Below are positions 14,370 through 61,586 of a stretch of 64,000 bases of DNA, in pieces. Every line of letters starts with the position of its first letter. Within the stretch, counting starts at the first letter, position 1. The DNA comes from Candidatus Omnitrophota bacterium (lineage in GTDB: Bacteria; Omnitrophota; Gorgyraeia; JABMRN01; RBG-13-46-9). The notes under the pieces are model-generated. The model did not search any database, was not told the origin of the DNA, and saw only the letters and a list, made by a program, of their open reading frames with translations. The DNA lies in contig JADHYM010000001.1 in NCBI GenBank assembly GCA_016782445.1, positions 10,212 to 74,211 on the forward strand. Reading direction: 5' to 3'. Position numbers and translations under genes: made by a program.

Positions 14370-14380
14370 ATTCTTTTTTT

Positions 14381-14411
14381 TACAGCTTAAAGCTTACAGC
14401 TTATAGCTTAA
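14381..14411. repeat. AGCTTA(N)AGCTT tandem palindromic repeat (family; other copies 23449-23466 and 56437-56466)
   Basis: TACAGCTTAAAGCTTACAGCTTATAGCTTA; all copies intergenic. Confidence 0.55.
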
Positions 14412-15218: not shown

Positions 15219-15219
15219 T

Positions 15220-17700: not shown

Positions 17701-17701
17701 G

Positions 17702-18754: not shown

Positions 18755-18757
18755 CTC

Positions 18758-19261
18758 TTACTTTCCCCTCTCAACTTCCCCTATCTGGTCACGAAGCCGC
18801 GCGGCCTCTTCGAACTCCTCGAGCTTTATAGCCTCTATAAGGCGCTCCTTCAAGTTGGCAAGGATCGTTTTGGTGTCCCGCTTTACCTCTTCTTTTGAAG
18901 GAATTTTTCCCACGTGACGCTCCGAGCCGTGTATCTTTTTTAAAAGCGGGCTTAAATTTTCTTTAAAAGTATCGTAGCAGGCCGGGCAACCAAGGCGCCC
19001 TATCTTACGAAAATCCCTGAAGGTAAACCCGCATTTGGGACACTTTACCGATATCTTTTCCGTTTCTTCGGTTTCCTTGACAGAAGTGGGAGCGAGGTCT
19101 GCCAGGCCCGATAAAAGGTCCGCAAGCCCGAAATGCGCTTCCATTTCTTCTGATTTCTCTCTAGCGCAATTCTCACAAAGATGGAGCTTCTTCACCTTAT
19201 CGTCCACTATCTCCGTAAGATGGACCGTTGCGTCTTGTTTCTTACATACGTCGCACTGCAT
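18758..19261 (-). CDS. mcsA: McsA-like activator of protein arginine kinase
   Basis: N-terminal Cys-rich zinc-binding repeats (CDVC...CENC, CPKC...CPAC) and a C-terminal UVR domain. Confidence 0.75.
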   Translation of the reverse strand: MQCDVCKKQDATVHLTEIVDDKVKKLHLCENCAREKSEEMEAHFGLADLLSGLADLAPTSVKETEETEKISVKCPKCGFTFRDFRKIGRLGCPACYDTFKENLSPLLKKIHGSERHVGKIPSKEEVKRDTKTILANLKERLIEAIKLEEFEEAARLRDQIGEVERGK

Positions 19262-40536: not shown

Positions 40537-40896
40537 TTACGCCTGGGATTTTTCCGCATTAAGATCCACGAAATCCCTGAGGTGCCCTTTGTCCTCCCTG
40601 CTGATTTCCAGGAACTTATTTCCCACTTCGTAGTCGTCGCCTACAGGCAGTTTTTTTATCCACGCTATTTTTGAAACCGCGCGGATAGGCTTTGCCAAAG
40701 CCGGCAGATTAAGCTCGACTATCAAGCGACATGCCAGCGATATAAATCTGTCGCTTCTGAACCTAACGCCACCTTCCGATATGTTCTTCGAAACTGTCCC
40801 TCTGAAGTCATCGCCAAGGCCCTGTAATTCTTTATACTTCAAGGGGAAGTCTGTAGATACACGGGGTGCGCGTCTTTGTTCTTCGAATGTACCCAT
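40537..40896 (-). CDS. PilZ domain protein (putative c-di-GMP receptor)
   Basis: RxxxR (QRRAPR) and DxSxGG-like (NISEGGVRF) motifs; 119 aa. Confidence 0.7.
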   Translation of the reverse strand: MGTFEEQRRAPRVSTDFPLKYKELQGLGDDFRGTVSKNISEGGVRFRSDRFISLACRLIVELNLPALAKPIRAVSKIAWIKKLPVGDDYEVGNKFLEISREDKGHLRDFVDLNAEKSQA

Positions 40897-42838: not shown

Positions 42839-45340
42839 TTAGGAGAGTACTATATTGACGAGTTTATCCGGAACGACGATCCACTTCTTTATGTCCCGGC
42901 CGGCCAGGTGGCTTTTGATTTTTTCGTCTGCTAGGATTTTTTCTTTCAGTTCTTCGGCGACGAGGCCCCTGGGTATCTCCATCTTCGAGCGGAGCTTGCC
43001 GTTTATCTGGACGGGAAGCGTTATGTTTTCCGCGAGAACGAGCTTCGCGTCGTATGAGGGCCATTCTTTTTTTAGTATACTTTCTTTCCCGCCAAGCTTT
43101 TCCCACAACTCCTCGCATATGTGCGGCACAAGAGGAGAAAGCAATACGATGACAGTTTTAACCGCCTGTTCGATGGTTTCGCGCGAAGAGGATTTTTTAT
43201 CCTCTGCAAGGTATACCTCGTTCACAAGCTCCATTATCGCGCTTATCGATGTATTGAAATGAAATCCTTTTTCGATATCGTCTGTCACTTTCTTTATAGT
43301 CTGGTGGGTCTTCCGTTTAAGCTTTTCGTCGTTCACCGTTCCTCGTTCCTCGTCTGTCGTCTGTCGTCTGTCGTCTGTCGTCTGTTTCGCCATCCTCCAA
43401 ACCCTCCCGAGAAACCTGTACGCTCCCTCGACCCCCCTGTCAGACCATTCAGCGTCCTTCTCCGGAGGCCCTATGAAAAGCGTATAGAGCCTTATGGTAT
43501 CTGCCCCGAACTTTTTTATAAGCTCATCCGGGCTCACTGTATTTCCTTTTGATTTTGACATCTTGGCGCCATTTTTTATTATCATTCCCTGGGTAAAAAG
43601 ATTTTTGAACGGCTCGTCAAAACCTATAAGTCCCATCTCATTTAAGACCTTCACTATGAACCGCGAATATAATAGATGCAGTATCGCGTGCTCAACGCCT
43701 CCTATATACTGGTCAACCGGAAGCCACCTGTCAACATCCTCTTTTTCGAACGGCTTATTTTCAAGCTTTGCGGATATGTAACGCAAAAAATACCAGCTAG
43801 AATCAACGAACGTGTCCATGGTGTCGATTTCGCGGCGTGCCTCTGCCTTGCACTTTGGACACTTAGTATCTACAAATTTCTTCGAGGTTTTTAAAGGGCT
43901 CTCGCCTTTTCCGCCCAAGGCGGACCTGCCTAGGGCAGGAGCGCCAAATTTCACGTCTTCCGGCAGAATTACAGGCAAATCTTTTTCCGGCACGGCTACT
44001 ATGCCGCATTTCTCGCAATATACCACCGGTATGGGCGCACCCCAGTATCTCTGCCGGGATATGAGCCAGTCCCTAAGTTTGTACTCGGTGGCCTTTTTGC
44101 CGATTTTTTTCTCCTCCATCCAGTCTGTTATTTTTCCAATCGCCTCTCTGTTTTCAAGCCCGTCAAACTGCGCCGAGTTCACCATTATCCCGTCATCTTC
44201 GTACGCTTTCCCCGGTTCTTCTGACCTCTGACCTCTGACTTCTGACTTCTGAATCACTGTCTCTATAGGTAGCTTGTACTTAGCCGCGAATTCGTAGTCT
44301 CTCTGATCGTGAGCCGGAACAGCCATGACAGCGCCTGTCCCGTACTCCATGAGAACGTAATTCGCCACCCAGAGGGGAATTTTTCTTTTCGTTACCGGGT
44401 TAATAGCGTACCGGCCGGTGAATATTCCAACCTTTTCTGCGTCGGCCTGTACACGCATTATTTTGGATTCCGTGCGCATTTTTTCGACGGCTACCATGAT
44501 TTTTGATTTTTCTTTTACGCCATCCAGGAGCTCTTCGAGATGCGGGTGCTCCGGCGCTATGACCATGTACGTGGCGCCGAAAATAGTGTCCACTCGAGTC
44601 GTAAAACAGGCTAATGTTTCCTCAGAACCCACAACCGGAAAATAAATTCTCACGCCCTCAGAGCGGCCTATCCAGTTAGCCTGCATTATCTTGACCCTTT
44701 CGGGCCAGTTCTCGAGCGACTTCAAGTCGCCTAAGAGGCGCTCTGCGTAATCAGTTATTCTAAAAAACCACTGTTCGAGGTCTTTTTGCGAAACAGCTGT
44801 CTCGCACCGTTCGCATTTTCCCTCTATTACCTGCTCGTTGGCGAGCACAGTATTGCAGGAAGAACACCAGTTGACAAACGCCTTTTTCCGGTAAGCAAGG
44901 CCCTTTTCAAGGAGTTTAAGAAATATCCACTGCGTCCATTTGTAATAATCAGCCAGGCATGAGGCAACCTCGCACGACCAGTCATAGCACACGCCCCAGC
45001 TCTTAAGCTGTTCTTTCATCCGTTTTATGTTAGCCAGAGTATATTTTTTAGGGTGGGTTTTATTTTTTATGGCAGCGTTCTCAGCCGGGAGCCCGAAAGC
45101 GTCCCAGCCCATGGGCGTAAGGACATTAAACCCGCGCATTTTCTTGTAGCGCGCGACGACATCACCTATTATGTAATTGCGGCCGTGCCCGACGTGAAGC
45201 GCTGCCGACGGGTAAGGGAACATGACCAGGCAGTAGAACTTTTTCTCAAAGTCCTTTATATCGGCCTTAAAAAGCTTTTTTTTAGACCAATATTCCTGCC
45301 ACTTCGGCTCAATCTTATCGAACGGGTATGATTTTTCCAT
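42839..45340 (-). CDS. leuS: leucyl-tRNA synthetase
   Basis: HIGH (HVGHGRNY) and KMSKS (KMSKSKGN) motifs plus a CP1 editing domain; 833 aa. Carries two heptamer-repeat-encoded low-complexity insertions. Confidence 0.95.
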   Translation of the reverse strand: MEKSYPFDKIEPKWQEYWSKKKLFKADIKDFEKKFYCLVMFPYPSAALHVGHGRNYIIGDVVARYKKMRGFNVLTPMGWDAFGLPAENAAIKNKTHPKKYTLANIKRMKEQLKSWGVCYDWSCEVASCLADYYKWTQWIFLKLLEKGLAYRKKAFVNWCSSCNTVLANEQVIEGKCERCETAVSQKDLEQWFFRITDYAERLLGDLKSLENWPERVKIMQANWIGRSEGVRIYFPVVGSEETLACFTTRVDTIFGATYMVIAPEHPHLEELLDGVKEKSKIMVAVEKMRTESKIMRVQADAEKVGIFTGRYAINPVTKRKIPLWVANYVLMEYGTGAVMAVPAHDQRDYEFAAKYKLPIETVIQKSEVRGQRSEEPGKAYEDDGIMVNSAQFDGLENREAIGKITDWMEEKKIGKKATEYKLRDWLISRQRYWGAPIPVVYCEKCGIVAVPEKDLPVILPEDVKFGAPALGRSALGGKGESPLKTSKKFVDTKCPKCKAEARREIDTMDTFVDSSWYFLRYISAKLENKPFEKEDVDRWLPVDQYIGGVEHAILHLLYSRFIVKVLNEMGLIGFDEPFKNLFTQGMIIKNGAKMSKSKGNTVSPDELIKKFGADTIRLYTLFIGPPEKDAEWSDRGVEGAYRFLGRVWRMAKQTTDDRRQTTDEERGTVNDEKLKRKTHQTIKKVTDDIEKGFHFNTSISAIMELVNEVYLAEDKKSSSRETIEQAVKTVIVLLSPLVPHICEELWEKLGGKESILKKEWPSYDAKLVLAENITLPVQINGKLRSKMEIPRGLVAEELKEKILADEKIKSHLAGRDIKKWIVVPDKLVNIVLS
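43338..43386. repeat. heptanucleotide tandem repeat (CGTTCCT x2, CGTCTGT x5) inside leuS
   Basis: Encodes ...QTTDDRRQTTDEERGT... in LeuS. A second heptamer array (CTGACYT x5) at 44220-44252 encodes ...SEVRGQRSEE.... Confidence 0.85.
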
Positions 45341-45801: not shown

Positions 45802-45828
45802 ATATTTATGTATATTTTGCCAGAGTGA

Positions 45829-45905
45829 TGGAATTGGCATACATGATGGTCTCAAAAACCATTGGTCGCAAGACCTTGTGGGTTCGAATCCCACCTCTGG
45901 CACCA
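45829..45905 (+). tRNA. tRNA-Leu (anticodon CAA), type II with long variable arm
   Basis: GCCAGAG acceptor stem, anticodon stem-loop ATGGT-CTCAAAA-ACCAT, variable arm GGTCGCAAGACC, T-arm GTGGGTTCGAATCCCAC, 3' CTCTGGC-A-CCA (CCA encoded). Confidence 0.85.
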
Positions 45906-45930: not shown

Positions 45931-46599
45931 ATGGGGTTTTGGAATACAAATATAGCATATGCCGTTGGGCTCCTAACCACTGATGGTAATATCTCAAATG
46001 ATAAGAGGCACATCTGGTTAACCTCTACTGATAAACAGTTATTATATACCTTTCGGGATTGCCTTAAAATAAAAAACCGTATATGCATAAATCCGCCGGG
46101 AAGTTACTCTCGAAAAATATGTTATAGAATTTCCTTTTGTAACATAAAATTTTACAATTGGCTATTAAAAATAGGACTAAAACCAAATAAAACTTTTTCT
46201 TTGGCATCTTTGAAAATACCTAAGAAATATTTTTTTGACTTTTTGAGAGGGCATATCGATGGAGATGGTTCAGTAATATATTACGTTGATAAGCATAATA
46301 AATACAAAGGAAAAACTTACGTTTATGATAGGTTATGGATTACATTGCGTTCCGGCAGTCTAAAACACATAAAATGGATACGAAAATGTATAAGAAAAAA
46401 GCTGCATATGAAAGGCAGTTTAAGCGGGTGGAAAGATAAAAAAAATAAAGCAAAGAAAATGTTATGGTCTTTAAAATTCTATAGAAACGACTCATTGGTG
46501 CTTATTGATCATCTATACTATAGATCTAATTTACCATGCCTTTACCGAAAAAGAAAAATCGCAGAAAACTACATTAAGAAAATAGGCAAAATAAATTAG
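45931..46599 (+). CDS. free-standing LAGLIDADG family homing endonuclease (double-motif)
   Basis: Two LAGLIDADG-type motifs, GLLTTDGNIS and FLRGHIDGDGSV, spaced about 100 aa apart. Lys-rich, AT-rich coding sequence. Begins 26 nt after tRNA-Leu; the ORF-track start at 45862 overlaps the tRNA. Confidence 0.8.
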   Translation: MGFWNTNIAYAVGLLTTDGNISNDKRHIWLTSTDKQLLYTFRDCLKIKNRICINPPGSYSRKICYRISFCNIKFYNWLLKIGLKPNKTFSLASLKIPKKYFFDFLRGHIDGDGSVIYYVDKHNKYKGKTYVYDRLWITLRSGSLKHIKWIRKCIRKKLHMKGSLSGWKDKKNKAKKMLWSLKFYRNDSLVLIDHLYYRSNLPCLYRKRKIAENYIKKIGKIN

Positions 46600-46600
46600 C

Positions 46601-47695
46601 TTACTCGAAATGCCAGAAACCGGGATTGTCTGAAAAGGACCTCTGAAAAGCCCTGATAACACGCGGATCGAACTGCGTTCCGGAACTTCGTACTATCTCA
46701 AGGGCAGCCTCTTTGGCAGTATACGCTTTCTGGTACGGGCGGTTCGTGGTTAGCGTATCGAACGCGTCTACCACTGCTATTATCCTTCCTTCGAGGGAAA
46801 TCTTATTTCCGCTCATCTTTTTTGGATATCCGGTGCCATCGAAACGCTCGTGGTGCTCCAGCATGCCGTTTAATATATTTTTCGATTCCACTACCGCCTT
46901 TACTATGTTGTACCCTATGGCCGGGTGTTTACGCATTTTTTGAAGTTCGTCAGCATCGAGGGCGGACTTTTTTGAAAGAATGCTGTCGCTTATGCCTATC
47001 TTTCCTATATCATGGAGTATGGAAGCAAAGTTCAGATCCTCCAGGAATTGTTCAGGCTCCCGCATCTCGCGCGCTATCTCGAGGGCATATTTTGACACGC
47101 GCTCTGAATGGCCGTGCGTGTAGGGATCCTTGGCGTCTACGGCGGCGGCAAGGCTTAAAATCGTATTTAAAAAAAGTGCTTTAGTGTTACCGTAAAGCCT
47201 GGCATTTAAAAGCGCGATTGCCACGTGATTTGCAAGCGCATAAAGAAGTTTTTTATCCGCCTCCGTAAAACGGGTTTTTCTGCTTTTATGGTCGCTTACG
47301 AGAAGTACCCCTATAATTTTTGAGCCGGTTTTAAGCGGGACGGCTATAAAAGAGCCTATGGGAATTTTTTCTTTTGAAAATGGTATTTTTTTTCGCTTGA
47401 AGCGCGCATCTTTTGCTATGTCATTTACAAGAAGCGCCTTGCCCTTCCTGGCAAGCTCCACATTAATCCTCTCCCATCCGGCAAGCACCTTCAGGTTCGC
47501 CAGCTGATTATTCGTAAACCCCTTGGCACCTATGAGGATAAGGTGGTGCGCTTCTTTATCCAGCAAGAAAAGCGCGCTGAAATCAGTATCGAGGAACTTT
47601 TTTGCTTCTTTTAAAATAATATTGCTTACTGTTACAAGCTCGAGGCTTGAGCTTACCTTACGGCTTACCTTTAAAAGCGTTTCAAGAACAGTCAT
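46601..47695 (-). CDS. GAF domain / HD-GYP domain phosphodiesterase
   Basis: N-terminal GAF domain; C-terminal HD domain with HDIGK and a GYP motif (FDGTGYP). Confidence 0.8.
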   Translation of the reverse strand: MTVLETLLKVSRKVSSSLELVTVSNIILKEAKKFLDTDFSALFLLDKEAHHLILIGAKGFTNNQLANLKVLAGWERINVELARKGKALLVNDIAKDARFKRKKIPFSKEKIPIGSFIAVPLKTGSKIIGVLLVSDHKSRKTRFTEADKKLLYALANHVAIALLNARLYGNTKALFLNTILSLAAAVDAKDPYTHGHSERVSKYALEIAREMREPEQFLEDLNFASILHDIGKIGISDSILSKKSALDADELQKMRKHPAIGYNIVKAVVESKNILNGMLEHHERFDGTGYPKKMSGNKISLEGRIIAVVDAFDTLTTNRPYQKAYTAKEAALEIVRSSGTQFDPRVIRAFQRSFSDNPGFWHFE

Positions 47696-47696
47696 G

Positions 47697-49631
47697 TCAT
47701 CCTATCCGCACCGCGATGACTGTTATGTCATCGTGCTGTGCTTTTTTTTCAAATTTTTTAACCGTATCTTGCACAAGATCTACCATCTTCTGCGGCGTGA
47801 GGCTCCTGTTCTTTGCCACAAGGTCCGCCAGGCGGGATGAACCGAACATCTCGGCCTTCGGGTTCATTGCCTCCGTAACGCCGTCAGTGTACATGACAAA
47901 CATGTCGCCTTTTCCGAACCGCGCCTCTTCGGCGCTGAACTCACCGTCAAAAAGTCCGAGCGGCGTTCCTTCTTTCGCGTCCAAGAGAATTGGCTCGGAT
48001 TTGTCTTTTTTCAGCATTATGATGGGCAAATGCCCGCCGCTTGCGTATAAGAGAAGGCTGTTTTTTTCGTCGAAAATAGCGTAGGTAAGCGTCACGAAGA
48101 GCCCTGCCGAGCCCTCTTTGACAAGGCGCGAATTCAGCTTTGTAACTATCTCTTTCGGGTTCGAAAGACCCATGTACGTCCTGAACTCGCTTACTACCTT
48201 TGCCATGTATAGAGCGGCCGGCACGCCTTTTCCTGAAACATCCCCTATCATCACTCCGAGCTTTTCAGGGCTTATTTTAACGAGGTCATAAAGATCCCCG
48301 CCTACCTGCTTGGCCGTTTGCATGCTGGCCGCGACCTGTATGCTGTGGGTAGCGGGTATTTCCTGGGGCAGGAAGCTTTCCTGGATACGCTTTGCTATCG
48401 CCAGCTCCTTCTCGAGAAGTTCCCTCCCCCGCATTTCTCCCATATAGCGCGTGAACGTAATGCCAAGGTAAAGAAATACCATTACGACGAAGGGACAGAA
48501 TACATCTATCCATAACCCGAAGAAAATGAATAAGAGAACCGCCAGAAGAACATAAGCCGCTGTTAGCAAAAATACAAAAAGGAAACCGACAAGGGTCTTC
48601 GCTCTTTTTGATACAAAAAAGAGAAGGAGCGAAAGAAATACAAGTATTGCCGCGTTTGTAGAGCGGGTCGCCCGGGCTATGAACTTTCCTATAAGAAAAC
48701 TGTTAAAGAGGCTTGCGTTAACCCCTACCCCCGGATACATGGAATCAAAAGGCGAGGGATGCACGTCCGGAGCCGCGGTTGCCGTTACGCCGATAAAGCA
48801 GACGCTATCTTGCAAAGATGTAAGATCCAGGATCGCTTCTTTACCGGTAACCTCCGGAAATTTGTCCGACATATAAGACTCTATAATATCTATGTAGGAG
48901 TAATGCCTGAAAGTATCCTGCCATCTTCCGGGAAAGTTAACGATAATGTTTGAATCTGAATCCAGCGGAATCTTTTGATCCTCGCCCATCTTGACATAAC
49001 GGCCGGGCGTGATCTTGATATCGTCTTGCTTTTTGCCCATGTAATTAGCCGCCACAAGAAAGCATACGTGGGGATAACCAATATTTTGATACCTGATAAT
49101 GGGAGGAACCCTTCTGAATTTTCCGTCAACGTCAGGAATTATATTTATGAATCCCGCACCCTTTGCAAAGCTTTCGAACCTGTCAAGAATTGCCTCCTGT
49201 AACTTATCAGCTACGGGAACGTCTTTTCGGCCTTCTTCTTTTATGTTGAAAATATAAGGAAGATATACTATCCCTGATTTTTTGATCGCCTCCTCGAAAA
49301 GCCTGTCCGCGGTCGGGTCGCTATCCTCGCTGAAAAAAATATCAAAAACGATTGCCTGCGCGCCGGCTTCCGTGAGCGCCTCAACGAGGGTTGCGTGGTA
49401 GCGGCGGGAAAAAGGCCACTTGCCGATTTTGTCTATGGTGTCATCGGCTATCTCTATTATGACTATGTTCTTTTTAACCTGGAGCGTGGGGCGCAGCCTG
49501 AACCTTATGTCGAGGGTTTCGAGTTCATAGCTGTCCAGAAAGCGCGAGTATGAAAGGGCTATTATCGCGATAAAAACGGCCAGGAGCCCGGCGTATAAGG
49601 CTATCTTCTTTTTAACCCTGGTAACATTCAT
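47697..49631 (-). CDS. CHASE2 sensor domain / PP2C (SpoIIE-like) serine phosphatase
   Basis: N-terminal TM helix and CHASE2 domain, further TM helices, and a C-terminal PP2C/SpoIIE domain with metal-binding aspartates (GGDLYD, GDVSGKG, DGVTEA). Confidence 0.75.
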   Translation of the reverse strand: MNVTRVKKKIALYAGLLAVFIAIIALSYSRFLDSYELETLDIRFRLRPTLQVKKNIVIIEIADDTIDKIGKWPFSRRYHATLVEALTEAGAQAIVFDIFFSEDSDPTADRLFEEAIKKSGIVYLPYIFNIKEEGRKDVPVADKLQEAILDRFESFAKGAGFINIIPDVDGKFRRVPPIIRYQNIGYPHVCFLVAANYMGKKQDDIKITPGRYVKMGEDQKIPLDSDSNIIVNFPGRWQDTFRHYSYIDIIESYMSDKFPEVTGKEAILDLTSLQDSVCFIGVTATAAPDVHPSPFDSMYPGVGVNASLFNSFLIGKFIARATRSTNAAILVFLSLLLFFVSKRAKTLVGFLFVFLLTAAYVLLAVLLFIFFGLWIDVFCPFVVMVFLYLGITFTRYMGEMRGRELLEKELAIAKRIQESFLPQEIPATHSIQVAASMQTAKQVGGDLYDLVKISPEKLGVMIGDVSGKGVPAALYMAKVVSEFRTYMGLSNPKEIVTKLNSRLVKEGSAGLFVTLTYAIFDEKNSLLLYASGGHLPIIMLKKDKSEPILLDAKEGTPLGLFDGEFSAEEARFGKGDMFVMYTDGVTEAMNPKAEMFGSSRLADLVAKNRSLTPQKMVDLVQDTVKKFEKKAQHDDITVIAVRIG

Positions 49632-49637
49632 ATGGAA

Positions 49638-50675
49638 TTAAAAGGAGTAATAAAGGCCCCATGTCATGATAGTGCCCGAGTATTTTTGCAGGGGTTCGTT
49701 CGAGGTGTTTTCTCTGTACGAGCAGTTGAACGCGAACGTAAATGATTTTGTCACGTCATACAGGACCGACGCGTTAAAGCTACAGGTAGAGTCAGCAACG
49801 TGCTCGTCATTCTTAGTTGAGAGTCTTCCCTTGTAACGCCTATTTTGGTAGGTAAAGCTTCCGCTTGCGTAGAGCTTCTTCGTAAACATATATATCATTG
49901 AAGGCGTGACCTTAAAGGACCAGTAGTCGTAATAATCAAAGTATTGGTAGTTGGACTCGTTATAGAAGAACTCTAGATTCGTCTTAAATATGGCCTTATC
50001 CATGTAAAAGCCGGCTTCGTATTCGCCCGCGTTGCGATAGTCGCGTCGCAAAGTCGACGAGTCCATGCCGCCGGAAGCGCGAACCGTGCCCTGAGTATAG
50101 CTTTTGTGCAGAAAATGCCAGCCTGCTTTCTGGTAAAGGTCCTGGGTTATGTTATGCTTCAAAAAAAGCATTACGTGATTTCCGAGGTAACTTCCGTTTC
50201 GATCCTCGGGAAACAAAGACACGTCAAAAGCATAATCCGTCTCTACCGTAAAAAGATCATCGAATACATCCACCTCAAACCCACCTACCGTATATATGTC
50301 AAGCAGGTTGGCATTGTGAACCGTGAAGTAAGTTATGGCGGTAAGGTCATTTTCTATTCTAAGCCGTACGTCCGGGGTGTAATTATAGGCAACGTCTGTG
50401 TTCAGCGAGCCTTCAAAGAACCCGTCTTTTAGCCTTTCCGGATCGAGGTTTACGTTGTTGTCAAAGCCAAAAAGCGTGCCGGCAAAGAACTCGAGGTCTA
50501 TTTTCTGGTCTTTAAGATGCTGTTTTACAGGATCCGTAAACCTGTCCAGATTAATAAGGTTCTCCAGATAATCGTATTTCTCTTCTGTCTTCACAGCGCC
50601 GGGGTGCTGTGCAAGAGCATTGAGAGCGGTTAAACTGAAAAATATAAAAAATAATGTTATGACAATTTTTTTCAT
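49638..50675 (-). CDS. putative outer membrane beta-barrel protein
   Basis: Signal peptide (MKKIVITLFFIFFSLTALNALA); alternating amphipathic beta-strand pattern rich in Y/F; terminal residue F (…WGLYYSF), as in many OMPs. Confidence 0.5.
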   Translation of the reverse strand: MKKIVITLFFIFFSLTALNALAQHPGAVKTEEKYDYLENLINLDRFTDPVKQHLKDQKIDLEFFAGTLFGFDNNVNLDPERLKDGFFEGSLNTDVAYNYTPDVRLRIENDLTAITYFTVHNANLLDIYTVGGFEVDVFDDLFTVETDYAFDVSLFPEDRNGSYLGNHVMLFLKHNITQDLYQKAGWHFLHKSYTQGTVRASGGMDSSTLRRDYRNAGEYEAGFYMDKAIFKTNLEFFYNESNYQYFDYYDYWSFKVTPSMIYMFTKKLYASGSFTYQNRRYKGRLSTKNDEHVADSTCSFNASVLYDVTKSFTFAFNCSYRENTSNEPLQKYSGTIMTWGLYYSF

Positions 50676-50701
50676 GGCCTTAATCGTCAATCTCCTTTCG
50701 C

Positions 50702-51508
50702 TTACTCTTGTGTGGACATGCATTCCGGGCCGCGCGTGCTTGTTCCTGCTCCGGTCTCCTGTTCTCTTTTTCTTATCCTGTCCTCGTCTTTACGCTCGAT
50801 TATCTTTTCTTTCTGCTGTTGTATCTTGGTAAGATCCCGCGATAGCCTTTCCATTCTAGCCTTTTTAGACAAACCTCTTTCAAAAAGGCTCTCTTTCCAT
50901 TTATTCCATTTCCCGAAATCTTTACCGGCAAGCTTCATGAGCTTGGAGGGCTTCTGGAAAAGCTTGACAATGGTCCTGGACCCCTTGGGTACGGTGAGAT
51001 TGTCCTCCATTATGTTGCCTTTTTTATCTATTCCCTTGGCGTACGCTTTATTTTCGTAGCAATCAACTACAGTTTCGTCTTTCTTGGCGTTCGCTCCCCA
51101 TCCGGTGCCTCTTGCTCCGCATACAGCGGTCGGGGTGCGTATTTCAAACCGGGATCCTTTTGGAATACTTTTTACGAGAGCAAGGATTTCTCCGTCTATG
51201 AGCTCGAGCTTTTCTATTCCGTCGAGCTTGATAACGACGTGCGTATTTTCCTCTATGTTCACAAGATTCGTATCGCCGTCGAATGAAATCTCCATGGAAG
51301 ATTCCTTATGCGTCTTTATGCTGTCTCCGGAACCAAGAAGCATTCCCTTCTTAGCGTTCTGCCAGCCGGGCTGGCCAGAGAGAAGTACTTCCGCTGTTCC
51401 TTCGATATACGATATAATAACCGCTTCTTCGCCTTTAGCAGTAATAAAAGTGGCCGTTAAAAATAAAAAGTTCGCGAAGAGAAATGTGAGAATTTTAAAA
51501 TACTTCAT
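50702..51508 (-). CDS. FecR-like periplasmic domain protein
   Basis: Signal peptide, a FecR-type beta-sandwich-like region, and a C-terminal charged coiled-coil tail. Confidence 0.5.
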   Translation of the reverse strand: MKYFKILTFLFANFLFLTATFITAKGEEAVIISYIEGTAEVLLSGQPGWQNAKKGMLLGSGDSIKTHKESSMEISFDGDTNLVNIEENTHVVIKLDGIEKLELIDGEILALVKSIPKGSRFEIRTPTAVCGARGTGWGANAKKDETVVDCYENKAYAKGIDKKGNIMEDNLTVPKGSRTIVKLFQKPSKLMKLAGKDFGKWNKWKESLFERGLSKKARMERLSRDLTKIQQQKEKIIERKDEDRIRKREQETGAGTSTRGPECMSTQE

Positions 51509-51531
51509 TTGTGCGCTCCTTCTTTTAAAAA

Positions 51532-52137
51532 TTACTTGCCCTTCATAAGAAGCTTCCAGGGATTCTTCTTGATATCCTCGGAAAATTCCTTAAAGTTGGC
51601 TGACGTGTCTTCGAGATTAGCGGCAATCGCGTTCACTTTTTCCTTGTTGTCGGAAACGATCCCCTTTACATCAGTGAGAGTGGCGTCAAGCTTGGATGCT
51701 ATCTGGTCGGCTTTCTTCATGAGCTCCCGCATCTGGAGAGGATCCTCGCTCGCTACTGTTTCGTTTCTTTTCAAGAATACGGATGATGTCCCGGGCGTTA
51801 TCCCTATGTAAGCATCTCCTATGAATCCCGTCGAGCCTATGAAAGCGATGGAATTTCCTCTCACCTTGGCGCCCTTATCAAGCTCGAGGACTAGCTCTAC
51901 GCTTGTCTTGTCCTCAGTGTAAGCAAGGTGTACTGTTTTTACCCTGCCAACCTCGATACCGGCCAGCTTGACTACTGAATTTTCCTTTATGCCGTCAGCG
52001 TGGCTGAAAAGGGTTTTAAGGTTATACGTCGCTGTATAGAGGTTTGTTGTGCGCAACCAGAAAAAAATGCCGACAAGTATTGCCGCAAATACCACGAGTC
52101 CCGTTTTTATTTCATTTGTCATTATAAGTTTTTTCAT
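51532..52137 (-). CDS. mlaD: MCE-domain protein MlaD, copy 2
   Basis: TM anchor and Mce domain; paralogous to the gene at 12880..13497 (both end ...PWKLL.K...). Confidence 0.7.
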   Translation of the reverse strand: MKKLIMTNEIKTGLVVFAAILVGIFFWLRTTNLYTATYNLKTLFSHADGIKENSVVKLAGIEVGRVKTVHLAYTEDKTSVELVLELDKGAKVRGNSIAFIGSTGFIGDAYIGITPGTSSVFLKRNETVASEDPLQMRELMKKADQIASKLDATLTDVKGIVSDNKEKVNAIAANLEDTSANFKEFSEDIKKNPWKLLMKGK

Positions 52138-52169
52138 CGCACCCTCCCTGTCCGCCGGTAGGCGGGCGT

Positions 52170-52970
52170 TTATTTCGTTAATTGTTCCAAATAATCGTCA
52201 CTTTTCTGAAAGAACTTTATCGGGCCGTCCGGGTCGCCTGCCAGGAATTGTTTTACAAGAGGGTTTTTCGAATGTTTTATTTCGTCCTTAGTGCCGACTT
52301 CGACAACTTTCCCTTCATAAAGCATCGCGATCCTGTCCGCGATGCGAAACACGCTTCCCATGTCGTGGGTCACCACTATGCTCGTGATAGAAAGTTTTTT
52401 TGAAAGGTCCAATATCAATTTGTCAATTACGCCCGCCACTATCGGGTCAAGGCCGGCCGTGGGTTCGTCGTAAAAAATGATTTCCGGGTCCATGGCAATG
52501 GCGCGCGCTAGGCCCACTCTTTTTTTCATGCCGCCTGAAAGCTGGCTTGGCATGAGATCCTCAAAGCCGCTCAAGCCCACGAGCTCGAGCTTCATCTTTA
52601 TCATTATATTTATTACATTTTCCTCGAGCTTCGTGTGCTCCCTTAGGGCCAGGCTCACGTTTTCGCCCACTGTCATCGAATCAAAAAGAGCCGAGCCCTG
52701 GAACGACATGCCTACTTTCTTTTTTATCGCGTCCATCTCGTCCTCTGTAAGATTCGTTATATCGGTCCCGAGAAGCGACACCCTGCCGGAATCCGGCTTA
52801 AGCGAGCCTATCATGTGCCTCAAGAGCGTCGACTTTCCGCAGCCCGAGCCTCCCATGATAACAAACGTCTCGCCCTTCTTTATCTCGAGGTCAATGCCGT
52901 TTAAAATGGTGCGTTCGCCGAAACGCCGCACCAGATTTTCTACTTTTACGGCTGTTTCTTTATGTTCCAT
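52170..52970 (-). CDS. mlaF: ABC transporter ATP-binding protein MlaF, copy 2
   Basis: Walker A GGSGCGKST and signature LSGGMKKRVGLARA; estimated about 50-55 percent identity to copy 1 from by-eye alignment of the two listed proteins (no alignment computed). Confidence 0.8.
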   Translation of the reverse strand: MEHKETAVKVENLVRRFGERTILNGIDLEIKKGETFVIMGGSGCGKSTLLRHMIGSLKPDSGRVSLLGTDITNLTEDEMDAIKKKVGMSFQGSALFDSMTVGENVSLALREHTKLEENVINIMIKMKLELVGLSGFEDLMPSQLSGGMKKRVGLARAIAMDPEIIFYDEPTAGLDPIVAGVIDKLILDLSKKLSITSIVVTHDMGSVFRIADRIAMLYEGKVVEVGTKDEIKHSKNPLVKQFLAGDPDGPIKFFQKSDDYLEQLTK

Positions 52971-53088
52971 CCGGTCAATCCTTTGTAAGATCCTCCTTCG
53001 CTGAATTGCTTTCGCGTTCAGCTTCGGCGGATAAAATTCGCACTTATGATTTACGCTTCCTTTCGGTCGCGTAAATCATGTGCTCATT

Positions 53089-53892
53089 TCACATATTCGA
53101 AAAATAAAAGAGGCCTGTCAGAATACAGTCAAAAAGTATTATCAAAACAAAGCTCGTCACTACGCTGACAGTAGTCGCTTTTCCCACGCCCTCGGCCCCG
53201 CCGCGCGTGTTAAGTCCCATATAGCAGCCTATCATCGAGATTATCGTAGCGAAGGTTACGCTTTTTATAAGCCCGGTCCATATATCCTTCCACGCCATAA
53301 AATCAAATGAAACATCGATGTAGCGGTGCGAGTTCAGGCCCAGGTTGTACACGCCCACAAGGTAACCGCCGAAAATGCCCATTATATCGCTGAAAAGAAC
53401 AAGGCACGGAAGCATGAGAAGAAGTGCTAGAAAACGCGGTACGACAAGAAACCGTATCGGGTTTAGGGCGAGAGTATCAAGTGCTTCTATCTGTTCTGAA
53501 ACCTTCATTGTGCCGAGTTCCGCCGTAATTGCGGCGCCGACTCGCCCTGCGACTACCAAAGATGTGAGGACCGGCCCCAGCTCCCTTACCATGCTGACGC
53601 TTACCATTGCCGCGACATATATAGCTCCGCCGAGCTTCGCGAGCTGGTACGCGCTTTGCATGGCTATTACTATGCCGGTAAAAAGCCCCACGAAGAACAC
53701 GATGAGTATGGACTTGACGCCCACGAATACCATCTGCTCGAATATGCTTTTTGGCTTCGGAAACTTCTTTTTGAAGGGCCCTATAACCGACCAGTAAACA
53801 GTCTCCCTAAACAAAGAAAACACTCTTTTTGAATGCTCTACCGTTCCCAGTACTACGCGGCCTATTCCTGAAATAAATTCTATGAAAAACAT
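53089..53892 (-). CDS. mlaE: ABC transporter permease MlaE, copy 2
   Basis: MlaE family permease, paralogous to copy 1 (shared ...RELGPVLT.LVVAGR.GAAITAE.GTMKV.EQI.AL.TLA.NPI..LVVPRF.ALL...). Confidence 0.8.
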   Translation of the reverse strand: MFFIEFISGIGRVVLGTVEHSKRVFSLFRETVYWSVIGPFKKKFPKPKSIFEQMVFVGVKSILIVFFVGLFTGIVIAMQSAYQLAKLGGAIYVAAMVSVSMVRELGPVLTSLVVAGRVGAAITAELGTMKVSEQIEALDTLALNPIRFLVVPRFLALLLMLPCLVLFSDIMGIFGGYLVGVYNLGLNSHRYIDVSFDFMAWKDIWTGLIKSVTFATIISMIGCYMGLNTRGGAEGVGKATTVSVVTSFVLIILFDCILTGLFYFSNM

Positions 53893-53893
53893 T

Positions 53894-54232
53894 TTAAGCG
53901 CTCAGTGCTTTTATGGCTTCCTCTTCTTCCTGCGTTATATCGAAAAGTTTTTCGAGCTTTGTGATTTCAAAAAGATTTTTTATCTTCGTGGAGAGGTTCG
54001 CCAGCTTCAGCTTACCGCCGTATGAACGCAAGTTTTTAAGCATCTCGACAAGCGTAGCCAGGCCAGAAGAATCTATGTAGCTCACGTCCTTGAAGCTCAT
54101 CACGATCTTCCCGTTCTTGGCGGCGATTATCTTATCAAAATCTTTTTTAAGCTGGGGAGATGTGTTGATATCTATTTCCCCTTTTACGTATAATAGGAGT
54201 ATGTCGTTCTTATTTTCCTTTATGATCTGCAT
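53894..54232 (-). CDS. STAS domain anti-sigma factor antagonist (SpoIIAA/RsbV-like), in MlaB position
   Basis: 112 aa with the conserved phosphorylatable serine context SYIDSSGLATLV; 2 nt upstream of mlaE copy 2. Confidence 0.85.
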   Translation of the reverse strand: MQIIKENKNDILLLYVKGEIDINTSPQLKKDFDKIIAAKNGKIVMSFKDVSYIDSSGLATLVEMLKNLRSYGGKLKLANLSTKIKNLFEITKLEKLFDITQEEEEAIKALSA

Positions 54233-54668
54233 TTTTACCCCCTCTTTGGCTTTTTAGCAATTTTATCATAGAAACCCTGTTTTTGTCATACAAAACTTTA
54301 TCCATGAGCTTATGCATAAGAAAGACGCCCCTTCCGCCCTCCATCAAAACATTGTCCCCTTTTGTAGGATCTGCGATTTTTTCGAGGGCAAAGCCGGAGC
54401 CCGCATCCTCTATTTCAACACTGAATGCGCCTTCGCGAAAGCTGTACCTGACAGATACGGAAAGGTTTTCTTTTCTTTTATTGCCGTGTATGATGGCGTT
54501 TTTTACCGCCTCCTCAACGCTTAAGCGTATATCAAAGAGAACGGAGGAATTTTGCGTTTTTGTTTTGAGAAAATCCTCAATTTTTCGACTTACCTGCCGG
54601 ATATAGGCGGTATCGCTCGGTATTTTTATCTCGTGCGAATGCGTTTTATTTAGGCTCTCTGAAAACAC
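54210..54668 (-). CDS. anti-sigma regulatory factor, serine protein kinase (RsbW/SpoIIAB-like, GHKL ATPase)
   Basis: HATPase_c motifs ([11 protein letters not shown]; DAGSGF; GRGVFLM); 152 aa; overlaps the STAS gene by 23 nt. Confidence 0.75.
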
Positions 54669-56429: not shown

Positions 56430-56470
56430 ATTTTTTATAGCTTACAGCTTAAAGCTTACAGCTGTAAAAA

Positions 56471-57119: not shown

Positions 57120-58658
<1,539 letters not shown>

Positions 58659-58662
58659 CTTC

Positions 58663-59979
58663 CTAACCCATTCCGTCCCTGGGACGGAATGGGTTTTTCT
58701 TGGCTTCGCCGGCGACAAAAAAGGATCCCGCAACAAGTATCAAATCCTCTTTTCCGGCCAGGGAAAGCGCCAAACTCATGGCATCTTTTACTGAATATGT
58801 TACTTCGATATTTTTTTTCCTTATGAACCTTTTAATTTTCGCCGGGTCCTCAGCGCGTTCCCGGCCTGCCCTTGTTGTTATTACAAAACTCGCCCGGGGC
58901 GCGAGTTCTTCGCAAATGCCCTTTATATCCTTATCCTTCGAGACGCCCAGAACAAGGATCATTCGACGGAATTTAAAATTTCTTTTCACGGTTTCCACGA
59001 TCGCCCGCGCGCTGCTTCTGTTCTGAGCGCCGTCTAGTATTATTGTCGGGTTTTTCCTTATCGCCTCGCACCGGCAAGAATGACGCGCCTTCTTAAGGCC
59101 TTCTTTTATATGAGGCGGCTTGATCTTCGCGCCTCTTTCCGCAAGCGCCTCGCATGAGGCCAGGCCAGAACACGCGTTTTCTATCTGGTGCCGGCCCACC
59201 ATAGAGATCTTGCAGCTTTTATACTTTCCCAGCCTTCCCGTGACATCAAATATTTCATTTCTCGAATCGTGATAGCGTTCTTTAAATTTTATGTCCCTTC
59301 CCACCAAAATAAATTTGTTCCTAAAACGCTCGACGCGGCGCTCGATTACTGAGAGGGGCCCTTTTTGCTGCGGAGAGCTCACTGTCACGCATCTTTCCTT
59401 TATTATGCCCGCTTTCTCGGCCGCGATCTCACGAAGCGTCGGCCCGAGAATACGGGTGTGGTCGCAACTTATAGGCGCCACAACCGAGACAACCGGACGC
59501 ACTATATTTGTCGCGTCAAGCGTGCCGCCTAAGCCAACCTCTATCACGCCGTAATCCGTTTTTTTCTTCTTAAAATAATTGAACGCGAGGATTGTCAGCA
59601 CTTCAAAATAGGTGGGTTTAAAATTCAATTTTTTCCGGGCCAGAGCTTTTTTTATTCTCTTCACCCCAGAGGCTAAGTCGCTTTTCCGTATCATTTCGCC
59701 GTTTATCGAGATCCTCTCCCGAAGATCGGCTATGTGGGGCGAGGTATAGAGGGCTGTCCTGTATCCGGCTTCTTCGAGTATCTTAGCAATAAAAACCGCG
59801 ATAGAGCCCTTGCCCTTTGTCCCCGCTACGTGAACGGCGCGGAAACTTTCCTGGGGATTTTGAAAAATTTGCGCAAGACGCCGGGCCCTCTCGAGAGCAA
59901 AGATCTTTTTATCGCGATATCCTATTTTCTCGTAGTCGATAAACGTCTCAAGGTATCTTATCGCTTCGTCATGCCTCAT
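58663..59979 (-). CDS. folC: bifunctional folylpolyglutamate synthase / dihydrofolate synthase
   Basis: Mur ligase family P-loop VAGTKGKGS; FolC-type domain order. The stop codon is TAG. Confidence 0.85.
   Translation of the reverse strand: MRHDEAIRYLETFIDYEKIGYRDKKIFALERARRLAQIFQNPQESFRAVHVAGTKGKGSIAVFIAKILEEAGYRTALYTSPHIADLRERISINGEMIRKSDLASGVKRIKKALARKKLNFKPTYFEVLTILAFNYFKKKKTDYGVIEVGLGGTLDATNIVRPVVSVVAPISCDHTRILGPTLREIAAEKAGIIKERCVTVSSPQQKGPLSVIERRVERFRNKFILVGRDIKFKERYHDSRNEIFDVTGRLGKYKSCKISMVGRHQIENACSGLASCEALAERGAKIKPPHIKEGLKKARHSCRCEAIRKNPTIILDGAQNRSSARAIVETVKRNFKFRRMILVLGVSKDKDIKGICEELAPRASFVITTRAGRERAEDPAKIKRFIRKKNIEVTYSVKDAMSLALSLAGKEDLILVAGSFFVAGEAKKNPFRPRDGMG
58665..58698 (+). 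terminator. strong hairpin plus T-run between folC and mnmE (terminator-like for plus-strand transcripts)
   Basis: AACCCATTCCGTCCC-TGG-GACGGAATGGGTT followed by TTTTC. Confidence 0.45.
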
Positions 59980-59992
59980 ATTCAGAAAAGGG

Positions 59993-60544
59993 CTATTCCC
60001 TAAGGATCTTTATTTCGGTTTTGAGGAGATTGATTTTTGCTTTTAAGCCGTCAAGGTCGTTTTTGAGGGAGTTGATTTCCCGGTCGAGATCTTCCGTCCT
60101 TCGGTTCCAGAGCGCTATTTCATCGCCGGAGAGGGTAAGTTTGTCTTTTTTTAGAAGGAGCGAGCGTATACTTTTAAGCTTCTCCAGGCGCTCGCTTAAA
60201 GTGTCTTTGACAATGTCGTACTCTATCTGCGTTTGCCGGAGCTTGGCGGAAAGCCCGTCTATCAAAGGGGTGATCTTGGTTTGCTGTATTCTTATTTTTT
60301 CTTTAATCTCCGCTTTTTTTACCGTAAGGCCTTTGCGCAAAAGCCCTATTTCGGAATTCGTCTTTTCCCGCGCCTCTTTCATGGAGAATTTCAGGGCCTC
60401 AATTTTCCTTGCAGTGCTGTCCTTTTCTTTTAAAACCCGAGCGAAAGAGGGGTCCTTCTCGAGCACATCGGCTACTGTCTTTTCGTCCACCCCTGTGCAA
60501 CCAGCTAAAAGTAATACTAAAAATAATATTGGGATTTTGTTCAT
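59993..60544 (-). CDS. hypothetical coiled-coil lipoprotein
   Basis: Lipobox LLLAGC followed by predicted coiled coil; no recognisable enzymatic motif. Confidence 0.45.
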   Translation of the reverse strand: MNKIPILFLVLLLAGCTGVDEKTVADVLEKDPSFARVLKEKDSTARKIEALKFSMKEAREKTNSEIGLLRKGLTVKKAEIKEKIRIQQTKITPLIDGLSAKLRQTQIEYDIVKDTLSERLEKLKSIRSLLLKKDKLTLSGDEIALWNRRTEDLDREINSLKNDLDGLKAKINLLKTEIKILRE

Positions 60545-60569
60545 TTTAAAATTGTTTCGGATTTCGAAT

Positions 60570-61586
60570 TTAAACATTAAACTTGAAATCAACTACATCT
60601 CCATCCTGTATTATATATTCCTTCGCCTCGAGTTTCAAGAGTCCCTTTTTACGGGCCTCCGGAATCGAGCCGCAAGAGACGAGGTCATCAAAGTTAATTA
60701 TCTCCGCCTTTATAAAGCCTCTCTCTATGTCCGTGTGGATCTTTCCGGCTGCCTCTTGAGCCCATATCCCGCGCTTTACGAGCCAGGCTTTCGTCTCGTC
60801 GCCCTTCGCCGTAAAAAAGGTTATATACCCGAGCCCCCCGCAGGCGGCTTCTATCACGCGCTCGGCGGCTCTTTTATTCGCTCCGAGTTCTTTTAAAAAT
60901 TTCTTTTTTTCCTCTTCTTCGAGCTCCGTAATCTCTGCCTCAAACTTCGCCGGAAATTCAACGAGCTTAAGCTTTTTTTCTTTGCAGAAACGCTCGAGAG
61001 CCGGCAGGAATTCCGCGCTCTCCTTTGTCTCTCCGGTATTTCCTACGATAAAAAGGGGTTTTTTGCTTAAAAACTGAAAGCCGCGTATGGATTTTTCCTC
61101 TTCGCAAGTAAATTCGACGTACCTAAGCGGCGTGTTTTTCTCGAGTGCCTCCTTGCATTTAAGAAGGGCCTCTTTTTCCAAAACCTTTTCCCTTGATTTT
61201 TCCTGCCTGATCTCCTTTTCCACGCTATGAAGGCGCTTGTCTATAATACTTGCGTCGGCCAGCATGAATTCAAGATCAATGTCCTCTATGTCCCGTACCG
61301 GATTGCGGCCCGAGAAAACGCCTACAACCTCCATGATCGAATCAACGTCTTTTATCTGGGGTATGTGAAATCCCGGAAGGTCCTCAAAAATAATTTCAGC
61401 CTGGGTGAGGCGTTTCGGGTTAAAGATGGATTTGAGTTTTTCGAGGCGCCCGTCAAAGACTTTTTGCGTACCAAGGTGGGGCTTCGTAGGATCGAGTTTC
61501 TCTGCCTTTTCCTCGGTTTCCTGTGTTATAACCCTGAAGCATGTCGATTTGCCCGAGCCCGCAAAACCGACTATCGCTACCTTCAT
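60570..61586 (-). CDS. ychF: YchF-like GTPase/ATPase with C-terminal TGS domain
   Basis: P-loop GFAGSGKST, an inserted coiled-coil domain, and a C-terminal TGS beta-grasp (…IIQDGDVVDFKFNV). Confidence 0.75.
   Translation of the reverse strand: MKVAIVGFAGSGKSTCFRVITQETEEKAEKLDPTKPHLGTQKVFDGRLEKLKSIFNPKRLTQAEIIFEDLPGFHIPQIKDVDSIMEVVGVFSGRNPVRDIEDIDLEFMLADASIIDKRLHSVEKEIRQEKSREKVLEKEALLKCKEALEKNTPLRYVEFTCEEEKSIRGFQFLSKKPLFIVGNTGETKESAEFLPALERFCKEKKLKLVEFPAKFEAEITELEEEEKKKFLKELGANKRAAERVIEAACGGLGYITFFTAKGDETKAWLVKRGIWAQEAAGKIHTDIERGFIKAEIINFDDLVSCGSIPEARKKGLLKLEAKEYIIQDGDVVDFKFNV

Follow-up and report, generated by a model that had tools for sequence, protein, structure and literature searches.

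A partner-switching module around an Mla-type transporter operon in Omnitrophota: a candidate for phospho-regulated lipid transport

What does a partner-switching module control when no sigma factor gene accompanies it? The question is raised by a gene string at positions 46601-54668 of a 64,000-nucleotide (nt) stretch of DNA from a Candidatus Omnitrophota bacterium (assembly GCA_016782445.1, contig JADHYM010000001.1, positions 10,212 to 74,211 of the forward strand; the whole stretch is called the window below), in which an RsbW-like serine kinase, a STAS protein and a CHASE2-PP2C phosphatase enclose the genes of an Mla-type ABC transporter. The original prediction, made from the sequence of the window, had read this string as a phospho-switch that gates the transporter. 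The analysis presented here leads to a related answer, to which a probability of about one half is assigned: the kinase and the phosphatase may switch the STAS protein at Ser55 and thereby gate MlaF2E2D2. Which proteins touch each other, and in which direction regulation runs, we infer from the analogy to E. coli MlaFB and to SpoIIAA/SpoIIAB; the signal and the transported substrate are inferences as well.

All positions are those of the whole window. The cluster consists of nine open reading frames (ORFs), all on the minus strand, and the coordinates and gaps originally given for them agree with the ORF list. In gene order, and with lengths in amino acids (aa), the features are the following:

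54210..54668, minus strand: RsbW/SpoIIAB-like GHKL serine kinase, 152 aa, GTG start
53894..54232, minus strand: single-domain STAS protein, 112 aa
53089..53892, minus strand: MlaE-family permease (MlaE2), starting 1 nt past the STAS gene
52971..53088, minus strand: structured spacer between mlaE2 and mlaF2, 118 nt, with two hairpins
52170..52970, minus strand: MlaF-type ABC ATPase (MlaF2), with an LSGGM signature and a C-terminal "handshake" extension
51532..52137, minus strand: short MCE-domain protein (MlaD2), 201 aa
50702..51508, minus strand: secreted protein with a FecR domain and a charged C-terminal helix, accessory
49638..50675, minus strand: outer-membrane protein (OMP), a 14-stranded beta-barrel, accessory; an alternative start of the ORF is at 50723, but 50675 is the probable true one
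47697..49631, minus strand: CHASE2-PP2C sensor phosphatase, with a transmembrane segment, a periplasmic CHASE2 domain, three transmembrane helices and a cytoplasmic PPM/SpoIIE domain
46601..47695, minus strand: GAF/HD-GYP protein (GAF and HD_5 domains), a probable cyclic di-GMP (c-di-GMP) phosphodiesterase, accessory

The spacing between consecutive genes is -23, 1, 118, 32, 23, -22, 6 and 1 nt, and the value of -22 nt between the FecR-like and OMP genes becomes +26 nt if the internal OMP start is used.

Linkage of the switch to the transporter

Domains were assigned by Pfam and NCBIfam profile searches, with the equivalog cut-offs given for each family; this check, proposed beforehand for the STAS, kinase and PP2C proteins, upheld every one of the earlier domain calls. 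On the transporter side, MlaE2 matched PF02405 (1.4e-80, 270 bits) and TIGR00056 (254.7 bits, above the cut-off of 212.2) without reaching the perm_MlaE_1 equivalog (203 vs 315). MlaF2 is an ABC_tran protein whose best NCBIfam match is MlaF, though its 248 bits fall short of the equivalog cut-off (441). Over its full length it can be aligned with the MlaF proteins of A. baumannii and E. coli, and it bears the signature QLSGGMKKR. MlaD2 matched PF02470 (2.9e-18, 66.3 bits against a cut-off of 25.1) and scored 77.6 bits with TIGR04430, below the cut-off of 135. No gene for MlaC (PF05494) or MlaA (PF04333) was found among the annotated genes of the window (about 0-22 kb and 20.5-64 kb).

On the regulatory side, the kinase matched HATPase_c_2 (1.3e-25, 90.3 bits, cut-off 27.4). 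Its N box is present, its G1 box reads EDAGSGF and its G2 box GGRGVFL; in the sequences of 83 kinase orthologues, read by eye, the N box (EEAxxNAxxHGN), G1 (EDxGxGF) and G2 (GGRGVYL) are visibly conserved. The STAS protein matched PF01740 (4.5e-22) and passed the Pfam family STAS_2 (44.4 bits vs 29.2). Its predicted phospho-site, Ser55, lies within YIDSSGLATLV, and DSSG is found in 84/84 STAS orthologues. In the AlphaFold2 model of this protein (predicted local distance difference test, pLDDT, of 89), the full SpoIIAA topology is seen, with helix alpha2 starting at residue 55, and helices alpha1-alpha3 are almost invariant among the orthologues. STAS is the most conserved of the three, with 60% identity to the window copy, against 47% for the PP2C protein and 41% for the kinase. 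The phosphatase matched CHASE2 (6.9e-52) and SpoIIE (PF07228, 1.7e-48, 165.6 bits), and its metal-binding motifs GGDLYD and DVSGKG (GGDxxD, DxSGKG) recur in 52/52 orthologues. With the motifs of kinase, STAS and phosphatase intact, the three components look competent, as far as their sequences can tell.

The first line of evidence that ties these two sides together is gene order. When species-level genomes were scanned with an alignment of STAS proteins, at least 542 relatives were found, the best 80 of which were analysed together with three metagenome loci; the ORFs of these loci were searched with the window proteins, and the denominators given here count the loci long enough to judge. In addition, an identical STAS sequence occurs on ENA metagenome contigs, and its homologues are labelled Candidatus Omnitrophota. 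The kinase gene stands directly before the STAS gene in 82/82 loci and MlaE follows STAS in 76/76, while MlaF is found in 74/74 and MlaD in 68/68. A CHASE2-PP2C gene comes after MlaD, or after FecR and OMP, in 42 of 46 loci. The FecR-like and OMP genes stand between MlaD and PP2C in 22 of 42, and an HD-GYP gene follows PP2C in 12 of 42; these accessory genes come and go while the PP2C gene keeps its place after mlaD. The core of the system is therefore kinase-STAS-MlaEFD plus the phosphatase, and the FecR-like protein, the OMP and the HD-GYP protein are accessory. Since it recurs in 83 non-identical related loci, the arrangement is not a product of chance. A survey of gene order had been set beforehand as a test of the original prediction, and the core order proved to be kept phylum-wide as well as in a lineage where the block has been relocated.

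Two loci of this lineage, L053 and L034, have the complete kinase-STAS-MlaEFD-PP2C block, and what precedes it there is not accA but BacA, a divergent LpxD and a beta-lactamase-like gene. This upstream context is shared by L068, where only kinase-STAS is visible, and in L079 kinase-STAS stands in a third upstream context, on a contig that ends after STAS. As it is intact in an altered context, the block moves as a unit. Past the PP2C gene of L053 come a TPR/BBP2 barrel and a FecR protein of 1220 aa, and downstream neighbours in general vary widely between loci. An apparent fusion or disruption of MlaF and MlaD in L002 (about 11990-12100) was rejected, as it coincides with a run of N, i.e., a scaffold gap.

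The second line of evidence comes from the ATPase. At its C-terminus, E. coli MlaF carries a unique extension, about 25 residues long, from which Tyr261, Leu265 and Leu266 reach into the interface between MlaF and MlaB on the adjacent subunit (PMC7367683). The tail of MlaF2, DGPIKFFQKSDDYLEQLTK, aligns without gaps with this extension, DGPVPFRYPAGDYHADLLPGS (residues 247-269). In the MlaF2 orthologues (45 of 75 aligned rows displayed), the position of Tyr261 is an invariant Tyr and that of Leu265 is Leu or Ile. The paralogue MlaF1, encoded without a STAS neighbour, ends before the C-terminal tail. The helical subdomain is 53% identical to that of E. coli MlaF in MlaF2 and 43% in MlaF1, a difference too small to carry weight.

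A third line is the position of the predicted phospho-site. Ser55 of the STAS protein aligns with Thr52 of E. coli MlaB, and also with Ser58 of SpoIIAA. The original prediction had set the STAS protein apart from MlaB by its phosphorylatable serine; this distinction falls away given Thr52 in E. coli MlaB, and the difference lies instead in the presence of a kinase and a phosphatase. Nor does the STAS gene occupy the usual place of mlaB, as had been claimed, for mlaB is the last gene of E. coli mlaFEDCB and the STAS gene here is the first, right before mlaE. In E. coli, Thr52 occupies the middle of the MlaF-MlaB interface, a phosphomimetic exchange (T52E) makes binding to MlaF weaker, and association of MlaF with MlaED requires MlaB (PMC7367683); T52A in MlaB abolishes ATPase activity (PMC5016091). 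The authors of one of these studies regard phosphoregulation of MlaB as attractive but unproven, and call it an open question (PMC7367683). STAS-MlaE fusion proteins have been reported elsewhere (PMC1810536, PMC5016091), and together with the 1 nt that separates the STAS gene from mlaE2 they fit a STAS protein that is a subunit of the transporter.

Finally, the divergence of the proteins was compared by partial Mantel tests over 43 loci, with the divergence of three flanking housekeeping proteins regressed out, a rough measure of supporting value only. Residual divergence was correlated between MlaE and MlaF (r = 0.49), PP2C and MlaD (0.56), PP2C and kinase (0.52), and PP2C and MlaF (0.40), all at p = 0.0005. 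For STAS, the coefficients were 0.27 with MlaF, 0.31 with MlaD and 0.23 with MlaE (p <= 0.005).

The gating model draws on linkage, with kinase-STAS-MlaEFD invariant in 83 loci and the Mla genes sandwiched between the kinase/STAS pair and a phosphatase gene that follows in 42/46, and further on the alignment of Ser55 with Thr52, the MlaF2-specific tail, the relocation of the block, the intact motifs and the co-variation of STAS with the Mla proteins. The cluster would encode an Mla-type lipid ABC transporter, MlaF2-E2-D2, with the STAS protein as a cytoplasmic accessory subunit in the role of MlaB. Unphosphorylated STAS would dock through its alpha1-alpha3 face on the helical subdomain of MlaF2, where the swapped C-terminal tail of MlaF2 would clamp it, stabilising or activating the ATPase on MlaE2. 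The RsbW-like kinase would take the same face of STAS and phosphorylate Ser55; phospho-STAS would then leave MlaF2 and transport would be turned down. The CHASE2-PP2C protein would sense a periplasmic or envelope cue and remove the phosphate, so that transport is turned on again, probably assisted in its sensing by the secreted FecR-domain protein and the 14-stranded barrel in about half of the lineages. The partner switch would thus be one between a kinase and an ABC ATPase, instead of between a kinase and a sigma factor. The fuller picture of a phospho-regulated Mla system across the phylum, in which kinase and CHASE2-PP2C toggle Ser55, STAS switches between kinase and MlaF2, and the FecR-like protein, the barrel and CHASE2 form a trans-envelope sensor of the state of the outer membrane, is put forward tentatively, at somewhat less than even odds.

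Opposing evidence and other readings

Several observations weigh against gating of the transporter, and they fall into two groups, of which the first concerns the STAS protein and its presumed partners. With the MlaB model NF033618 mlaB_1 the protein scored 30 bits, below the cut-off of 90, and no MlaB is among its PDB sequence matches. Its structural model contains beta5 (98-100) and alpha4 (103-111), both missing in MlaB, which has a minimal STAS fold without the fifth strand and the terminal helix (PMC7367683); E. coli MlaB (6xgy_B) is the 48th structural match, with a template modelling (TM) score of 0.61. On the other side, the protein passes TIGR00377, "anti-sigma factor antagonist" (87.8 bits, cut-off 53.45), and its closest PDB folds are RsbV in its complex with RsbW, TM1442, and SpoIIAA in its SpoIIAB-bound form. 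As it fails the MlaB model and matches RsbV and SpoIIAA by both sequence and fold, it is a canonical kinase-partnered antagonist of the SpoIIAA/RsbV type, outside the MlaB family. The partial Mantel coefficient between STAS and kinase is 0.02, which is odd if the two are partners, though STAS varies little. Moreover, a shorter C-terminal extension of MlaF exists in Veillonella, which has no MlaB (PMC10665443), so that the MlaF2 tail is suggestive rather than proof.

Much of this would suit a conventional partner-switching module whose output lies elsewhere. The kinase would hold a distal sigma factor or some other protein, STAS would release it without ever touching MlaF2, and the Mla genes would be merely co-located and co-expressed, both systems serving envelope homeostasis. 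Besides the affinities of STAS, this explanation is favoured by those of the kinase, whose best NCBIfam matches are RsbW and SpoIIAB (with 58 bits for the RsbW equivalog, below the cut-off of 145), by the known cases in other bacteria of partner-switching genes apart from their targets (reviewed in PMC8256260), and by surroundings that form a phylum-wide syntenic backbone. We nevertheless regard it as unlikely. The absence of a sigma factor gene from the string, part of the original prediction, was confirmed and extends to the 83 related loci examined with the window's families; no group-3 sigma factor is encoded within the 64 kb, where the sole sigma factor is an extracytoplasmic function (ECF) sigma with its own zf-HC2 anti-sigma factor, about 18 kb from the cluster. 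Kinase/STAS and phosphatase flank the Mla genes, also after relocation. A distal output would, in addition, leave the MlaF2-specific and STAS-correlated tail unexplained, and the residual divergence of STAS follows the Mla proteins and not the kinase.

The second group of adverse observations concerns conservation. All the evidence of this kind is from a single phylum: the best 80 of the at least 542 relatives are all Omnitrophota, some under the generic label "uncultured Planctomycetia", and so are the best 120 matches listed in the protein search. Synteny is almost as strong in the flanks, with DUF212, LysM/YkuD and accA on the upstream side (accA in 66/70 loci) and leuS, comEA and comEC on the downstream side, as it is in the cluster itself. 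With housekeeping flanks equally syntenic, conservation alone is weak evidence, and a large part of the shared gene order could reflect inertia inside a single phylum. The whole block in a new context was seen in one relocated lineage only. Four loci, all of one clade (L038, L051, L056 and L069), have no PP2C gene although their kinase-STAS-MlaEFD motifs are intact, so that the phosphatase of these genomes is either elsewhere or absent. There are also extra STAS paralogues a few kb downstream in L086 (12297-12662, minus strand), L025 (18418-18801, plus strand), L055 (18261-18626, minus strand) and L074 (8071-8472, minus strand), from which it follows that these genomes hold more than one STAS-based circuit.

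Some further features of these loci may be recorded here. In L051, MlaD is followed by a PDZ protein and a HAMP protein, and in L069 by a helix-turn-helix (HTH) protein and then leuS. The STAS paralogue of L086 adjoins a protein that resembles a TonB-dependent receptor.

Taken at its strongest, inertia would mean that there is no functional relation at all, and that a generic regulatory pair happens to stand beside a duplicated mla operon in a gene order inherited within one phylum. The restriction to that phylum and the almost equal conservation of accA, LysM/YkuD and DUF212 upstream and of leuS downstream are what this explanation has in its favour. It is very improbable in view of a block that survives a change of context, of genes that lie 1-32 nt apart or overlap, and of a PP2C gene that follows mlaD in 42/46 loci while accessory genes vary; the correlation of the MlaF2 tail with STAS and the co-variation of PP2C with MlaD, MlaF and the kinase argue in the same direction.

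The linkage evidence that supports gating also applies to signalling in the reverse direction. In this case STAS would be an MlaB-like subunit of a stable kind, how much of it is free for the kinase would depend on what the transporter is doing (lipid load, ATP turnover), and Mla would act as a sensor that reports the lipid status of the envelope to a kinase target or to c-di-GMP signalling. The recurrence of c-di-GMP genes downstream (HD-GYP in 12/42 loci, GGDEF in L008, PilZ-like genes and a receiver in L025) would agree with such an output. These genes are, however, optional and heterogeneous, no downstream target was identified, and the CHASE2 phosphatase already offers an obvious input domain; we give the reverse direction little credence.

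Relation to known systems

The proposed gating of MlaF2E2D2 by a phospho-switch has its closest relatives in two families of systems. With the MlaFEDB transporters from E. coli and from A. baumannii, this cluster shares MlaE, an MlaF with LSGGM signature and handshake tail, a short MlaD and a small, operon-encoded cytoplasmic STAS protein, with Ser or Thr at the position of Thr52 in both. It differs in its STAS protein, which is of the full SpoIIAA type with beta5 and alpha4, fails the MlaB equivalog and is encoded first rather than last, and in the dedicated kinase and phosphatase of the operon, none being known for MlaB (PMC7367683). Compared with the six-component Mla system of E. coli, the equivalog cut-offs of MlaF, MlaE and MlaD are not reached here. 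With the B. subtilis modules SpoIIAA-SpoIIAB-SpoIIE and RsbV-RsbW-RsbU/P, on the other hand, the cluster has in common a DSSG-type STAS antagonist, a GHKL kinase and a PPM/SpoIIE phosphatase. Unlike them, it has no sigma gene, its phosphatase carries a periplasmic CHASE2 domain, the module is split around an ABC transporter operon, and the alternative partner proposed for STAS is an ABC ATPase.

Control of an envelope or biofilm function by contact with a phosphorylatable STAS or STAS-like protein, without a sigma factor, is known from SypA/SypE of V. fischeri (PMC10120452), SiaABCD of P. aeruginosa (PMC8457831) and the HenR/STAS-glycosyltransferase system of Anabaena (PMC13555669). Their outputs are polysaccharide or c-di-GMP enzymes, and none has been reported to act on an ABC or MCE transporter. 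The Burkholderia "BiofilmReg" operon and its P. aeruginosa relative (PMC5192318) resemble the cluster in the secreted FecR-domain protein beside a CHASE2 sensor; in those operons the sensing is done by a histidine kinase paired with a response regulator, whereas here a PP2C phosphatase and a 14-stranded barrel are found. The minimal MlaEFD of Veillonella (PMC10665443) shares a core without MlaA, MlaB and MlaC, as in most non-proteobacterial diderms. Its MlaD is long and ends in a beta-barrel of its own; MlaD2 has 201 aa, a STAS protein is present, and the barrel is separate and optional.

A phylogenomic study that surveyed Mla across bacteria recorded MlaB only as present or absent (PMC10665443). 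The claim that the architecture had not been described before was borne out to the extent that the open-access literature searched yielded no Mla or MCE system reported to have a STAS kinase and phosphatase of its own. For the hypothesis of phosphoregulation at Thr52 in E. coli (PMC5016091, PMC7367683), for which no kinase or phosphatase has been identified, the Omnitrophota operon supplies candidates for both, and it makes the hypothesis of MlaB phosphorylation testable by reconstitution with four soluble or membrane proteins. If gating is correct, this would be the first partner-switching circuit with a transporter as output and the first kinase/phosphatase pair for that hypothesis. Partner switching would then extend from transcription to the post-translational control of an ABC lipid transporter, which would suggest a way for diderms to link lipid trafficking to a signal from the periplasm or the outer membrane. 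If it is not, there is still a clean, sigma-less partner-switching module in an uncultivated phylum.

Accessory genes and surroundings

The FecR-like protein matched PF04773 (3.3e-12, 47.1 bits, cut-off 24) and is weakly similar to Leptospira LipL45/Lsa33. An N-terminal signal peptide can be read from its sequence, and it has no anti-sigma domain. The OMP scored 23.5 bits with BBP2_2, just below the cut-off of 23.7, and its AlphaFold2 model is a 14-stranded, plug-less barrel (pLDDT 86) with CymA as top match. In FecA-FecR-FecI, the periplasmic domain of FecR is the common element, but the cluster has no TonB-dependent transducer, no membrane-spanning anti-sigma part and no adjacent ECF sigma gene. 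FecR-domain periplasmic proteins are encoded beside CHASE2 sensor kinases in Burkholderiales and P. aeruginosa (PMC5192318). Given this precedent, the optional nature of the FecR and OMP genes and their place past the PP2C gene in one lineage, both were assigned to the sensory input of the phosphatase: by analogy, the FecR-like protein and the barrel more likely feed the CHASE2 sensor than the transporter. The original suggestion that they are parts of the Mla system was not supported, as both are missing in about half of the loci, and as obligatory Mla components they were rejected as the default reading on the same grounds and for their change of position.

The GAF/HD-GYP protein matched HD_5 (PF13487, 8.3e-39, 133.5 bits) and GAF (3.8e-16), and the motifs HDIGK and HHERFDGTGYP can be read in it. 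A c-di-GMP input had also been suggested, by way of this protein and of a PilZ gene; the former is encoded in only 12/42 loci and the latter is unlinked. The PilZ gene, at about 40537-40896, lies beyond comEC, comEA, leuS and two tRNAs and was rejected as a part of the system. Genes for c-di-GMP proteins do recur past PP2C, namely HD-GYP (46601-47695 in the window) and, in L008, a GGDEF gene (18431-19210). In L025, two PilZ-like ORFs (15981-16648 and 17338-17730, recognised by eye from RxxxR and DxSxxG) are found together with a receiver. This hints at no more than a loose connection to c-di-GMP signalling.

The spacing within the string agrees with the first description, but its upstream limit at the kinase gene did not stand: accA and the kinase gene overlap by 23 nt, and LysM/YkuD and accA by 1 nt. 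Because the packing continues into accA and LysM/YkuD, the upstream limit is arbitrary, and the transcription unit may start further upstream than the kinase gene. At its downstream end, the string meets a convergent LAGLIDADG-like ORF and a tRNA-Leu gene. The tRNA-Leu CAA gene occupies 45819-45905 on the plus strand; the free-standing LAGLIDADG-like ORF (45931-46599, plus strand), with a faint Pfam match, begins 26 nt past it, and 1 nt separates its end from the stop of the HD-GYP gene, which is convergent to it. The ribonucleotide reductase gene that leaves the window at its right end (from about 61.7 kb; L001 1-2529) contains inteins that carry a LAGLIDADG domain.

A scan of the cluster for promoters and terminators gave counts not above those of shuffled sequence, the terminator-like sites on the minus strand being weak intragenic matches only, and an Rfam search found only the two tRNAs and no riboswitch. 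The spacer between mlaE2 and mlaF2 has a predicted fold of -42.3 kcal/mol (z = -6.4 vs shuffles) that is unique in the window, and its second hairpin base-pairs with the GGAGG in front of the start codon of mlaF2; the spacer contains no T-run and has no Rfam match. In relatives, the mlaE/mlaF spacer measures 3-487 nt and is not conserved in sequence, and hairpins are visible in that of L010.

The existence of a second mla set, mlaE1F1D1 at 12880-15218, was confirmed, and none of the genes beside it codes for a STAS protein, a kinase or a phosphatase, so that the separate, partner-less mlaEFD set of the original prediction is present as described. The set comes directly after mcsA (UVR), mcsB (arginine kinase) and clpC, which share its strand (12880-19261), with 1 nt between clpC and mlaE1, and is itself followed by a PIN-TRAM gene. 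Elsewhere in the window, a 199-aa ORF at 59993-60592 has no Pfam match.

Tandem repeats with a period of 7 nt lie inside essential genes, in trmE at 58318-58458 and in leuS at 43350-43385 and 44220-44252, and a further one is at 30467-30501. In trmE (57120-58736, minus strand), TCTGTCT is repeated 20 times and encodes in-frame QKTEDRR/QKTEDGR peptide repeats; depending on the sample, TrmE is called with 398, 482 or 377 aa, an indication that the copy number of the repeat varies. A 14-nt tandem motif, TTACAGCTTAAAGC, occupies the gap between mlaE1 and mlaF1 (14380-14410) and, written TTAAAGCTTACAGC, that between the DUF212 and LysM-YkuD genes (56435-56468). A second type of repeat, beginning TTTGTCATTTGTCA, is found at 70-126 and 12749-12798.

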